NCBI GenBank assembly: GCA_964016885.1
Contig: OZ024741.1
Coordinates: 411,618,001 to 411,682,000, forward strand
DNA length: 64,000 bases
Source: Eledone cirrhosa
Lineage: Eukaryota
Direction: 5' to 3'
Part shown: positions 16,886 through 50,100 of the stretch, piece by piece
Numbering within the stretch: the stretch's first letter is position 1
How the letters are laid out: each line of letters opens with the position of its first letter
The notes under the pieces: generated by a model
The model's input: the letters and a program-made list of their open reading frames with translations, nothing else
What the model was told of the DNA's origin: nothing
The model's database searches: none
Made by a program: the position numbers and the translations under genes

Positions 16886-17950
16886 ATAATATAATGAAAT
16901 GACAGGAGGCTGGATTTGTGTAAATCCTTGAAAGGTTTATTATACTATGATCATTTCAATGACCGGGTTCCGTATGAATCCGGTGATATCATCAGGTATT
17001 CGAAATATAATACGTGAATGTAATAGGTAAAATCCATGGGGCTGAAAATCGAGACCCGAGGGCGACCGCTATTCTGTTCCTTCAACCTCAGCCGGTCGCC
17101 CTGGAGTGACGTGGCCAAATTTTATAGTATGCTACTACCGGTCAGATGAACGAAAACAGAAAGAGATGGGAGCATAGGTTAACGTCGATCCCATGACACA
17201 AAGGTAAAAGAAAGAAAGAAAGGAAGGAGAGGAAGGGGGAAGAAAGAAGAAAAGAAGTCAGGGTTAATGTCAGCTAAAAGAGGAAGGTAACTACTACTGG
17301 TCAGATATAGGCAAGCAAGAGGGGAAGGAATATAAGTCTGCAGGGAGGAGGAGAGGAGAGAAGGAAGGGAAGAGAGAAGTAGAAAAGTAAGGGTTGATGG
17401 CTACAAGAAGGAAGATAGAAAGGATAGGATGAAGTTAAAAAAATTTAATAATCAATATTCAATATTAAAGAGGTTAGAAAATTTAAAGTTCAACAGTTTA
17501 ACAATTAATTATATAATAGTTCCGATTTGTTCTGTAATTTAAGGGTACTATTTGGCGGTTAAAACAACGGCCGCTCCCCGGGCCCCATGGCGAATTAAGC
17601 CACGCCGAGTATTTTCATTTACTGAAAGAAGGGGAAATTTATTTTTCCAAGCACTCTAGGTGAGCTCGTTCGCCACGGAGCTGGTCGTGCCGCCATTAAA
17701 ACCCACCCAACAGTCCGACAGAAAGTTGGAACTTTAAAATTTAGCTTAGAGAAGTAAAAGAGTAATGGTTGATAGCTACAAGAAGGAAGATAGAAAGAGA
17801 GAGGAAGGAAGGTCGATATTAATGTCACACCACAGTCGGGCAGGAGTGGCGCGACAAAATTTTCACAGGGGACTCGCATCTTAGCAGAGGTGAATATAAT
17901 GGGGGTCAGTGTGTTACAATGTTTAGACTTATAGGATGAAGTTAAAAAAT
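16886..17950 (-). mobile_element. Non-coding 3' end/pseudo-LTR of a probable Penelope-like element inside (TA)n
   Basis: Unique island flanked by TA runs. The minus strand has a hammerhead motif, then AATAAA, then (TA)n. Internal direct repeat GCTACAAGAAGGAAGATAGAAAG at ~17400 and ~17773. No RT ORF. Confidence 0.55.
16942..16999 (-). ncRNA. Type-I hammerhead ribozyme motif (palindromic stem III, Penelope-type)
   Basis: Minus strand: atac-CUGAUGA-[stem II containing accgg/ccggt and ttc/gaa]-GAAA-ugauca-UA-gtat. Stem I is atac/gtat; AUGAUCAU is a palindrome. Confidence 0.75.
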
Positions 17951-20900
17951 ATATATATATGAAGTTAAAATATATATATATATGAAGTTAAAATATTATA
18001 TATATATGTATATATATGTATATATATGTATATGTATATATATGTATGTATATGTATATATATGTATATATATGTATATATATATATATATATATATGTA
18101 TATATATGTATATATATATATATGTATATATATGTATATATATATATATATATATATATATGTATATATATATATATATATATGTATATATATATATATG
18201 TATATATATATATATATATATATATATGTATATATATATATATATATATATGTATATATATATATATGTATATATATATATATATGTATATATATATGTA
18301 TATGTATATATATATATATATATATATGTATATATATATGTATATATATATATATATGTATATATGTATATATATATATATATGTATATATATATATATA
18401 TATGTATATATATATATATATGTATATATATATGTATATATATATATATATGTATATATATATATATATGTATATATATATGTATATATATATATATATG
18501 TATATATATGTATATATATGTATATATATGTATATATATATATATATATGTATATATATGTATATATATGTATATGTATATATATGTATATATATGTATA
18601 TATATATATATATATATATGTATATATATATATATATATATATATATGTATATATATGTATATATATATATATATATATATATATATGTATATATATATA
18701 TATATATATGTATATATATATATATGTATATATATATATATATATATATATATGTATATATATATATATATATATGTATATATATATATATATATATATA
18801 TATATATATGTATATGTATATATATGTATATATATATTATATATATATGTATATATATGTATATATATGTATATGTATATATATGTATATATATGTATAT
18901 ATATATATGTATATATATGTATATATATGTATATATATGTAATATATATATATATATATATGTATATATATATATATATATATATATATATATATGTATA
19001 ATGTATATATATGTATATATATATATATATATATATATGTATATATATGTATATATATGTATATGTATATATATGTATATATATGTATATATATATATGT
19101 ATATATATGTATATATATGTATATATATATATATATATATATGTATATATATGTATATATATATTATATATATATATATATATATATATATATGTATATA
19201 TATATATATGTATATATATGTATATATATATATATATATATATGTATATATATATATATATATATATGTATATATATATATATATATATGTATATATATA
19301 TATATATATATGTATATATATATATATATATATATGTAGTATATATATATATATATATATGTATATATATATATATATATATGTATATATATATTATATA
19401 TATATGTATATATATATATATATATATATGTATATATATATATATATATATATGTATATATATATTATATATATATATATATATATATGTATATATGTAT
19501 ATATATATGTATATATATATATATATGTATATATATATGTATATATATATGTATATATATATGTATATATATATATATGTATATATATATGTATATATAT
19601 ATGTATATATATATATATATGTATATATATATGTATATATATATATATATATATATTATATATATGTATATATATATATATATATATATGTATATATATA
19701 TATATATATATATATATATATGTATATATATATATATATATATATATATATATGTATATATATATATATATATATATATATATATGTATATATATATATA
19801 TATGTATATATATATATATATGTATATATATATATATATATATGTATATATATATATGTATATATATATGTATATATATATATATATATATATATATAAA
19901 TATATATATATATATGTATATATATATATATATATATATATATATATATGTATATATATATATATATGTATATATATATATATATGTATATATATATATA
20001 TATGTATATATATATATATATATGTATATATATATATATATGTATATATATATGTATATATATATATATGTGTATATATATATATATATGTATATATATA
20101 TGTATATATATATATATGTGTATATATATATATATATGTATATATATATGTATATATATATATATATGTATATATATGTATATATATATATATATATGTA
20201 TATATATGTATATATATGTATATGTATATATATGTATGTATATGTATATATATGTATATATATGTATATATATATATATATATATATGTATATATATGTA
20301 TATATATATATATATGTATATATATGTATATATATATATATTATATATATGTATTATATATATATATATATATGTATATATATATATATGTATATATATA
20401 TATATATATATATATATGTATATATATATATATATATATATGTATATATATATATATGTATAGTATATATATATATGTATATATATATGTATATGTATAT
20501 ATATATATATATATATATGTATATATATGTATATATATATATATATGTATATATGTATATATATATATATATGTATATATATATATATATATGTATATAT
20601 TATATATATATGTATATATATATGTATATATATATATATATGTATATATATATATATATGTATATATATATGTATATATATATATATGTATATTATATGT
20701 ATATATATGTATATATATGTATATATATATATATATATGTATATATATGTATATATATGTATATGTATATATATGTATATATATGTATATATATATATAT
20801 ATATATATATATATATGTATATATATGTATATATATGTATATGTATATATATATGTATATATATGTATATATATTATATATATATGTATATATATATATA

Positions 20901-47100: not shown

Positions 47101-50100
47101 AAGGCCCTGTCCTTAGCCCCCTCCTATTTATTATTGCCCTTCAGGCTATAACAGAGGAGTTTAAGACCGGCTGCCCATGGGAACGTCTATACGCAGATGA
47201 TCTAACTCTCATAGCTGAATCTATGGCTGAACTAGAGAAGAAATTCCAAACTTGGAAGCATGGCCTAGAATTTCTAAGACTAAAGTTCTAATATGTAGAA
47301 AGGAAAATAGAGCACAGCTCCCCTCTGGGAAATGGCCATGGTCAGTGTGTAGGAAAGGAGTAGGTAGAAATTCCATTTTATGTCCCAAATGCAAACTATG
47401 GGTACATAAAAGATATAGTGGGATCACAGGTAGACTAAGAACGTAGACTTTATATGTGGCCGATGCTCAGGTGCAATAAGTAGCAAGTGTCCACAGGATA
47501 CTAGCTCTTTCTATTTCCCAGATGGTTCTATAGAAATAGTGGGCACTTTCCGTTACCTGGGTGACAAAATCAGCAGTGGTGGAGGTTGTGCTGAAATACA
47601 GTAAATGAAAGGCAAATTGTATGATGCCTGAATATGAACAGCAATGCTACATGGCAGTGAGACATAGGCATTGTGTGCAGAGGATATACACAGACTGGAG
47701 AGGAACGAAGCTTGCATGCTCCGTTGGATGCTCCATTGGATGTGTAATACATGAACGGCAAAGCATAAATGAACTAAGTGAGAAATTAGGAATAAGAGGG
47801 ATCAGATGTTGTTTACTCGAGAGAAGACTACGTTGGTATGGTCACGTGATGCGCATGAAAGATGACAGCTGTATAAAAAAGTGTAGGGTGATCAAAATTG
47901 ATGGTAGTTATGGAGTAGGTAGACCCAGAAAAACCTGGGCCGATTTTATAAATTCCAACCTTACACACTTGCACCTCTCTAAGACAATGTCACTGGACCG
48001 AGATCTTTGGCGCTACGCAGTAATACAGAAGACACGCCTTGCCTATGTACAAAGCGAAACCTACAGTCGGTAGGCACCCCTTAATCAAATATACAGCCCA
48101 ATCCACTACCCCTACCCTATCCTCCCACTCCTATCAACACCACCCTCTCTCTGTAAAGTTGGTACCACAACATCTACTCCAAATAAATATGAAATGGGAT
48201 TTTAAATCTGTTAAAAAAAGATTTTAACATTTAAAATCCCATTTCATATTTTTTATCCATAACATCTCTGTCTGATGACCGATCCGGACTTATATTATTA
48301 TTGTCTGGGATCCAGAAACCTCTGGTAATAGAGTAGTTATATTTTGTGTTGTTCACTTTCTAATTAAATAGCTCTGTTCTATATATAGAGCACTCTTTTT
48401 TCCTTTGCTTTTCCTTCGGAATTACCTAACACGTAAAACATTATATATCATCATCATCATCTTTTAACGTCCATATTCCACGCCTGCATGGGTCTGGACA
48501 GGAATTTTCCCACTTGAGACAAGATTGGTTGTCTTGCTCAGGACTGTCTGGCGGGTTTTCTACGGCTGGATGCCCTTCCTAACACCAACCACGTTTACAG
48601 TGTGGACTGGGAGGTTTTTACCGTGTTACCTACACGGCCACATTACAGCGTGGACTGTGTTTTTTTGTCGTGACACCTACACGACCTCATTTATTTCGGA
48701 CTGGATGTTGTGGTACCAACATAGCTTCACATTGAAGGGGGTGGTGTAGATGGCGGTAGGGGTAGTGGGACAGGGGTGTATTTTGGTTAAGGGGTGCCTA
48801 CTGACTGTAGGTTTCGCTTGTACTTAGGCAAGGTGGGTCTTCTGTATTACTACGTAGCGCCAAAGATCTCGGTTCAGTGACATTGTCTTGGAGAGGTGTA
48901 AGTGTGTGAGGTTGGATTTTATCAAGTCGTCCCAGGTTTTTCTGGGTCTGCCTACTCTGTAGCTACCGTCTATTTTGATCGCCCTGCACTTTTTTATACA
49001 GCTGTTGTCTTTCATGCACATCACATGACCATACCAACGTAGTCTTCTCTCGAGTAAACAACATCTGATCTCTCTTCTTCCTAATTACTCACTTAGTTCA
49101 TTTATGCTTTGCCGTTCGCGTATATTACTATTACACATCCAACGGAGCATGCAAGCTTCGTTCCTCTCCAGTCTGCGTAGATCCTCTGCACACAAGGCCC
49201 ATGTCTCACTGCCATGTAACATCGCTGTTCGTATGCAGGCATCATACAGCCTGCCTTTTATTTTTAGAGAGAAACCTTTAGCGGCCAATAGTGGTATGGC
49301 CAATAGTGGTATAAGCTCTCTGAACTTTTTCCATCCCGTTCGGGCTCTAGCTACAGTACTTTCGGAGCACCCTCCACCACTGCTGATTTTGTCACCCAGG
49401 TAACGGAAGGTGTCCACTATTTCTATAGAACCATCTGGGCAATGGAATGAGCTAGTATTCTGTGGGTATTTGCTGCTACTTATTGCACCAGAGCACCGGC
49501 CACATATAAAATCTTAGTTAGCTTACCTGTGATCCCACTACATCTTTTATGCACCCATACTTTGCATTTGGGACATAAAATGGAGTTTCTGCCTACTCCT
49601 TTCCTACACACTGAGCATGGCCATTTCCCAGATGGGACCGGTGCCCTATTCTCCTTTCTACAAACTAGAACTTTAGTCTTAGACAAGTTAACTTTAAGGC
49701 CTTTTGATTCTAGGCCATGCTTCCATGTTTGGAATTTCTTCTCTAGTTCAGCCATAGATTCAGCTATGAGCGTTAGATCATCTGTGTATAGAAGTTCCAA
49801 TGGGCAGCCGGTCTTGAACTCCTCCATTATAGCTTGGAGGGCGATAATAAATAGGAGGGGGCTAAGGACGGAGCCCTGATGAATACCAACTTTTACGCTA
49901 AACTCTTCACTATATTCGTTGGTAATTCTAACCTTCCTGACTGTTTCTTTATACATGGCTTGTATAGCTCTCACAAGCCATTCATCTACACCTAGTTTTC
50001 TCAGAGCCCACCAGATAATGGAGCAGGGGACTGTCAAAGGCTTTCTTCAGGTCTACAAAAGCTAAGTAGAGGGGTTTACTTTTAGCTAGGTACTTCTCAA

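Follow-up and report, generated by a model that had tools for sequence, protein, structure and literature searches.

Features of the locus

The window analysed here is a 64-kb stretch of the Eledone cirrhosa genome (G000:C2:411,618,001-411,682,000 of the 3.0-Gb assembly) that consists mostly of satellites, a 10-kb AT array and retroelement pieces. Our subject is three short segments within it, each carrying the core of a type-I hammerhead ribozyme and named A, B and C together with the clans to which they belong, and their relation to Penelope-like elements (PLEs), one of which lies close to C. In the list below pLTR denotes a pseudo-long terminal repeat, RT the enzyme reverse transcriptase, P1 and P2 the inner and outer of two 3′ ends found in each family, and L-numbers genomic loci retrieved by similarity, motif or position searches.

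16886..17958, minus strand: A, a 5′-truncated copy that keeps the final 1.07 kb of a non-coding Penelope-like unit of 2,685 bp (98.9% identical to the unit of L121 from its position 1609 onward); its end is P1, with TA-rich runs on both sides
16942..16999, minus strand: hammerhead A, helix I of 4 bp, helix II with U.U at its base, a palindromic helix III (1 bp plus a GAUC loop, dimer type), predicted cut 16946/16945
30247..30396, minus strand: B, 5′-truncated 3′ pLTR of a putative Hydra-clade PLE (90% identical to the 3′ end of the whole element L281); its end is P1, without the ~60-nt tail
30282..30342, minus strand: hammerhead B, helix I of 7 bp in the family (one mismatch in the window copy), helix II of at most 11 bp, helix III CCACUGG, predicted cut 30289/30288
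48187..48437, plus strand: C, 5′-truncated 3′ pLTR of a putative sister Hydra-clade family (92% identical to L177); its first 31 bp (48187-48217) are inverted, and it includes the tail and so ends at P2
48266..48333, plus strand: hammerhead C, helix I of 6 bp, helix II with two mismatches at its base, helix III CCUCUGG (CCUUUGG in the family), predicted cut 48327/48328
50086..54232, plus strand: a separate Neptune/Nematis-type PLE, RT and GIY-YIG in three frames, with an early stop

Hammerhead cores, controls and copy number

All three segments combine a CUGANGA and GAAA core with a UH cut site and three helices, and the exact CUGAUGA...GAAA...UA cores named in the original prediction, which was made from the letters of the window, are present. 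CUGAUGA starts at 16995 (minus strand) in A, 30335 (minus) in B and 48272 (plus) in C, GAAA lies at 16957, 30301 and 48315, and the last base ahead of the predicted cut (UA) is 16946, 30289 and 48327, respectively. Three of the 18 CTGANGA sites in the window pass our type-I filter. The filter was written after the motifs had been seen, which gives weight to the shuffled and reversed controls: a single match appeared in one of 200 locally shuffled windows and none in the reversed window. Across 915 kb of retrieved loci, a set collected for such repeats whose counts are therefore not a genome average, the filter returned 237 matches in 26 clusters and none in the same DNA reversed. An alternative selection using the core and a self-complementary helix III only, with no rule for helix I or II, gave 315 matches in 41 clusters, against 8 matches in the reversed control. 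Over these 41 clusters helix I pairs at 4.24 of 6 positions, compared with 2.53 for permuted partners, and none of 5000 permutations reached 4.24. Likewise, three of the six helix I pairs differ between B and C on both sides with pairing kept, so that the expected covariation of the stems is seen. The claim that all stems pair was nonetheless generous: the base of helix II is non-G-C or mismatched and helix I of A has only 4 bp.

The core is intact in most sampled copies (A 30/30, B 28/30, C 26/30). Genome-wide, the A clan has 5,528 exact motif matches and the B/C clan 12,421 (0 and 19 for the controls), with CTGANGA at most 60 nt upstream in 31 of 38 and 25 of 30 sampled matches; the segments are not single-copy. 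Identity is 99–100% in 40/40 scored genome matches of A, 92–95% for B and 86–95% for C (full-length matches). Because the two clans alone have a mean density of ∼0.4 per 64 kb, three hammerheads in one TA-rich window need no special cause; simple arithmetic from this mean would place three in ∼330 of ∼47,000 windows of 64 kb by chance.

A polypyrimidine tract ending in AG, which may resemble a splice acceptor, lies upstream of each hammerhead. The flanks of loci L001–L211 hold at least 20 further hammerhead families, in which the palindromic helix III and the 10.1–11.1 pair vary (in hammerhead position numbering); among 20 multi-locus clusters this pair is U.U in five and G-C in two.

B and C are ends of coding elements

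The three segments had been described as mutually dissimilar. This is true of A, which scores near the null against B and C (41 and 34), but B is homologous to C: copies of the two families can be aligned for ∼350 nt with a score of 236 against a shuffle maximum of 89, through the upstream pyrimidine tract, the hammerhead, the tail and the leader beyond, and the two copies in the window reach 60, where the null maximum is 53. On the evidence of their sequences, B and C derive by truncation from the ends of two protein-coding sister families, which motifs and inspection by eye place in the Hydra clade.

For B, 22 of 30 loci containing the start of the open reading frame (ORF) have part of the hammerhead region directly upstream, 10 of them with an intact core, and the hammerhead–ORF junction is identical in most of the 30. 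ORF, untranslated region (UTR) and hammerhead follow one another on one strand in L096, L160, L161 and L163, an intact 711-aa ORF is joined to B at L253:1605-3740, and whole units measure 3.8 and 4.1 kb (L280, L281). The single ORF has, by motifs, an RT followed by a C-terminal GIY-YIG-type nuclease: RMRWK (35), DKT (114), YRDD (346), CxCX5C (556), YVG (595), CxxC (659) and CxH (690), with neither CCHH (no CX2-5CxxC) nor an N-terminal GxKF. The RT/GIY-YIG call follows from these motifs together with 26% identity to the RT of the window PLE and from close homologues; the database holds 186 of at least 612 aa, and of the 120 listed, 118 have DK[TS] and 113 have CxCX5C. C leads through hammerhead, tail and leader into a Hydra-type ORF in L177 and L178, with ∼70% DNA identity to the B ORF, and every C-linked ORF copy seen was broken. 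The description as non-coding cassettes therefore fits A only, since B and C precede an RT plus GIY-YIG ORF elsewhere. What stands of the proposal is that these are ends of multi-copy Penelope-type retroelements that carry hammerheads and target microsatellites; they are not three unrelated non-coding families.

Both families have the hammerhead in the 3′ end or pLTR and (TA)n insertions known from the Hydra clade, although the outer end of C is mostly followed by (CA)n (17 of 29 similarity-picked copies, after two false anchor matches were dropped). Termination in a TA run, proposed for all three segments, is found in A (62–70 nt downstream) and B (41 nt); in C the terminal run ∼114 nt downstream is only TTATATAT, followed by the (GAT)n tail of an RTE element, and the first (TA)4, 52 nt downstream, lies inside the element.

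Two long interspersed nuclear element (LINE) copies, which we take to be RTE-like, face each other around C (46800-48188, plus; 48447-50080, minus), the (GAT)n tail of the minus copy abutting the C end. At 39504-39724 (minus) lies a fragment that shares 91% identity with the region of L177 holding the C-linked Hydra-type ORF.

A is the end of a non-coding unit

The A unit recurs at L121 with a period of 2,685 bp. Of 30 loci retrieved with the unit start, 29 have the hammerhead end immediately upstream of it, in a pLTR–body arrangement. Its architecture includes a partial tandem forming the pLTR, 5′ truncation, a commonly inverted 5′ copy and a tail at one end. The longest ATG frame has 86 aa and the unit has no credible PLE protein match; comparison with the 120 homologues and the window PLE protein gave one weak antisense match (E 0.006). 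Sister families at 82–88% identity exist, one with helix II A-U replaced by G-U. The head-to-tail joint is present in contigs from four sequencing runs of unrecorded kind. The checks for tandem arrangement and PLE linkage suggested with the original prediction both gave positive results, A being head to tail and B and C joined to a PLE ORF. Contig depth over the last 170 bp of the L121 unit, its hammerhead end, is ∼100 times that of the body, which suggests that the A clan consists mostly of 200-bp stubs, or of sister families that have only this end in common. A is a young non-autonomous family, likely moved by a Hydra/Penelope-type protein. Hydra ORFs near A copies (L012–L014) were considered as partners and set aside as neighbours that are not joined to A. 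An assembly gap (16639-16838) lies just past the TA run of A.

A fourth family, D, is relevant to a different view of A.

30384..30612, minus strand: tail of D, abutting B; other copies have the D hammerhead further upstream, but this one lacks it

It can be argued that the hammerheads cut the RNA to unit lengths, that ligation closes these into circles and that rolling reverse transcription then copies the circles, A and D being retrozymes. This circle route, proposed by Cervera 2014 (PMC4209133) and shown for short repeats by Cervera 2020 (PMC7229834), would suit the head-to-tail occurrence of A and D and the conservation of cores across diverged families, and copying of circles also runs through the cut site. 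We nevertheless consider it unlikely, because the A unit of 2,685 bp compares with 150–450 bp for retrozymes (up to ∼970 bp in the Li 2026 preprint), A occurs in partial tandems and inversions rather than arrays, and a PLE in vitro used uncut RNA, with hammerhead mutants inserting normally (Frangieh 2024, PMC11167929). A circle and an uncut linear transcript would leave the same genomic copies, as both run through the cut site. Family D (also L172–L174) has a ∼600-bp head-to-tail unit, a monomer-type hammerhead with a helix III of 5–6 bp and 2,913 search candidates, and 30 of its 34 anchor matches end in (TA)n; it may be a better retrozyme candidate than A.

The neighbouring PLE at 50086

The element at 50086 has RVT_1 and GIY-YIG domains, GLKF, DKG, a CX5CxxC linker and a 1.2-kb 3′ UTR ending at (TA)n. 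No CTGANGA was found on its sense strand or in the 3′ UTRs of sampled anchor-bearing copies, and Rfam reported no ribozyme family in its 3′ UTR. Canonical PLEs are said to carry a hammerhead, and another fold may stand in for it in this family.

The original prediction had this element as the possible mobiliser. Its proximity to C (1.7 kb), its (TA)n end and the abundance of its family (2,148 search candidates, 96–98% identical) would favour A, B and C being non-autonomous cassettes moved by it. B and C have their own ORF with different clade motifs, a direct linkage that rules this out for both, and the 50086 protein is only 26% identical over 218 aa to the Hydra-type protein joined to B. Nor is there an end sequence common to the 50086 element and B/C, the only matches being antisense and microsatellite-like, to the B UTR. 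Judged from these sequence features, the 50086 element is not the partner of B or C; it could be a helper of A. As an account of all three segments we regard this as highly improbable.

A, B and C as pseudo-LTR ends of PLEs

We conclude with considerable confidence that A, B and C are 5′-truncated 3′ pLTR ends of PLEs, B and C from coding sister families and A from a non-coding family likely mobilised by a Hydra-type protein. Hammerhead-bearing pLTR ends are an ordinary feature of PLEs.

Several observations weigh against this conclusion. The helper of A was not found, as searches of extended loci, of the body and of sister families gave no linked ORF among the top-scoring matches. The B units (3.8–4.1 kb) exceed the usual Hydra-clade size of <3 kb, which is a tendency and no criterion, Pfam scores the 711-aa protein neither as RT nor as GIY-YIG, and the putative Hydra placement of B and C comes from motifs and a by-eye match of the N-terminus to Hydra-1_Obim. 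Three C-type loci (L168, L177, L178) have the ORF followed by a tail that lacks a hammerhead, so that the whole-unit layout of C rests on one locus (L168). As for the ribozymes themselves, the hammerhead-compatible monomer fold lies above the free fold by 3.7 kcal/mol in B and C and by at least 7 kcal/mol in A, and the stability of the free folds is unremarkable (z −0.5 to −1.9, five sequences). The G10.1–C11.1 pair, called highly conserved by Cervera 2014 (PMC4209133), is missing, the base of helix II being U.U in A, U-A in B, and C.A then C.C in C. The Rfam check suggested with the original prediction gave a negative answer: no hammerhead was reported in the slices of A, B or C even at E≤10, nor for the whole window at E≤1 among the 150 of 196 rows listed.

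The non-canonical helix II base, the competing folds and the missing Rfam match could also mean that the hammerheads are catalytically dead relics or protein-binding folds within the pLTR, and the neighbouring 50086 family is abundant without any core. This seems doubtful, since families with ORFs no more than ∼70% alike have the same core letters and show covariation in helix I. In addition, U.U at the helix II base recurs in 5 of the 20 multi-locus clusters, and an axolotl hammerhead with U.U at this position does cleave (Cervera 2020, PMC7229834). Helix III is self-complementary in all three, with −7.2 (A), −8.2 (B) and −5.1 kcal/mol (C) as a duplex, as expected of hammerheads acting as dimers (Cervera 2014, PMC4209133; review PMC6765202). 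By themselves the hammerheads are probably weak, with cutting confined to dimers or to RNA assisted by protein.

Two 3′ ends and read-through of the cut site

In each family the 3′ end falls at one of two fixed positions, P1 and, ∼60 nt (B, C) or ∼140 nt (A) further, P2; the tail is the segment that separates them. Among single copies chosen by position rather than similarity, 20 per clan, the A clan has 10 at P2 and 10 at P1 (one P1 copy, L320, is unclassifiable) and the B/C clan 14 at P1 and 6 at P2 (L350 assigned to P2 by eye); a TA or CA run adjoins the end in 17/20 of either clan. Copies usually run through the cut site. This is the case in 29 of 30 A loci, where the nearest 5′ end is 50 nt upstream of the cut, and in 19 of 30 B loci, while one B copy (that with the intact ORF) starts at the cut, four start downstream and six have no pLTR piece. 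Uncut (or circular) RNA is therefore the likely template, and cutting is probably not needed for insertion. For a PLE in vitro, two internal RT start sites bracket the tail, cutting by the hammerhead depends on protein and uncut RNA serves as the template (Frangieh 2024, PMC11167929).

We propose that a transcript across the pLTR into the next unit would be bound by the PLE protein, whose nuclease would nick a (TA)n or mixed TA/CA tract. Reverse transcription would then start internally at P1 or P2, 40–200 nt past the hammerhead, and would usually stop early, leaving short hammerhead-bearing stubs like A, B and C. Priming by microhomology was considered, as the ends fall at TA- or CA-like letters, and set aside, because Frangieh 2024 (PMC11167929) saw priming without homology.

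Inverted insertions follow a rule with respect to these ends. Diverging pairs were chosen by position among the first 100 matches listed for C1, using all 19 pairs of A and 15 of 16 of B/C. One arm ends at P1 and the other at P2 in 17/19 A and 14/15 B/C pairs (31/34 in total); the other three are P1/P1 and none is P2/P2. With one duplicated locus dropped, 30 of 33 are mixed (p ∼7e-7 against 50%). Pairs picked by similarity are mixed as well: 6/6 for the A pairs in which both arms end, 11/11 for C, and 3/3 for B, one arm of which reads through. In such insertions both target nicks would be primed on one RNA, one at P1 and the other at P2, and that the same RNA primes both is probable. That this would happen in one step, by a protein dimer priming both nicks on a single RNA with one start site each, is a tentative suggestion drawn from the pattern of the ends. 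A tail at only one end of inverted insertions was already noted by Craig 2021 (PMC8557442) and ascribed to nuclease resolution.

Comparison with known systems

The Hydra clade, with hammerheads and (TA)n targets, was defined by Craig 2021 (PMC8557442), and its octopus family Hydra-1_Obim (helix III acca-a-tggt) is the nearest published relative of families B and C, the N-terminus giving a match by eye. Shared with B/C are a single ORF, RWK, DKT, the CxCX5C linker, no CCHH, a hammerhead near the 3′ end, a near-identical helix III and (TA)n targets. The B/C unit differs in its length of 3.8–4.1 kb, with a long microsatellite-laced 3′ UTR, where published elements are mostly <3 kb, and in its clear pLTRs and inversions (none recorded for Hydra-1_Obim), its thousands of copies and the preference of the C outer end for (CA)n.

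The pLTR hammerheads of PLEs described by Cervera and de la Peña 2014 (PMC4209133) resemble A, B and C in being type I with a long helix II and a short or palindromic helix III, and in occurring mostly as solitary truncated copies or as opposite-strand pairs 100–700 bp apart. A, B and C depart from them in lacking the G10.1–C11.1 pair and a clear bulged base, and in B and C helix III keeps 2 bp closed by a triloop. The anole element Poseidon PAc (Frangieh 2024, PMC11167929) has, like A, B and C, two fixed 3′ ends around the tail (with a stem-loop in B/C), AT-rich targets and read-through. In contrast, its tail is 30–40 nt, compared with ∼60 nt in B and C and ∼140 nt in A, the ends in our elements lie upstream of the ORF, and in vitro it showed no strand difference, whereas the arms of our inverted insertions use different ends. 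With MRC1 and other non-autonomous Chlamys elements (Craig 2021), and with non-LTR retrozymes (PMC7229834; Li 2026 preprint), A shares a non-coding unit, a type-I hammerhead, head-to-tail junctions and likely mobilisation by a PLE; its 2.7-kb unit is not a short 150–450 bp tandem, and its pLTR, inversion and tail bring it closer to a non-autonomous PLE. The published literature covered, apart from Repbase, Dfam and subscription papers, gave no description of the A, B and C families or of the arm rule as a count.

Other features of the window

1-16638: satellite of 25-bp units
17970-27975: satellite of AT units (the 10-kb array)
30804-35464: satellite of 25-bp units
58815-59774: satellite of 72-bp units
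60012-63451, minus strand: LINE with an 828-aa RT frame and a broken endonuclease part, presumably L1/Tx1-like

An exon-like frame at 41713-42045 (plus), possibly with 38684-39229 (plus), matches the CC2-LZ domain of NEMO with an E of 2.8e-8, slightly below the cut-off, and a host gene of NEMO/optineurin/ABIN type probably spans this region. Frame pieces at 58130-58330 (minus), split by satellite, resemble exons of an N-acetylglucosamine kinase-type host gene.

Implications

At least 18,000 hammerhead-bearing PLE ends are present in this 3-Gb genome, of which Rfam missed the three that were tested; few families were known when the clade was first described. The arm rule offers a quantitative constraint on how PLE insertion is completed, a question that Frangieh 2024 (PMC11167929) raises together with the role of the hammerhead.

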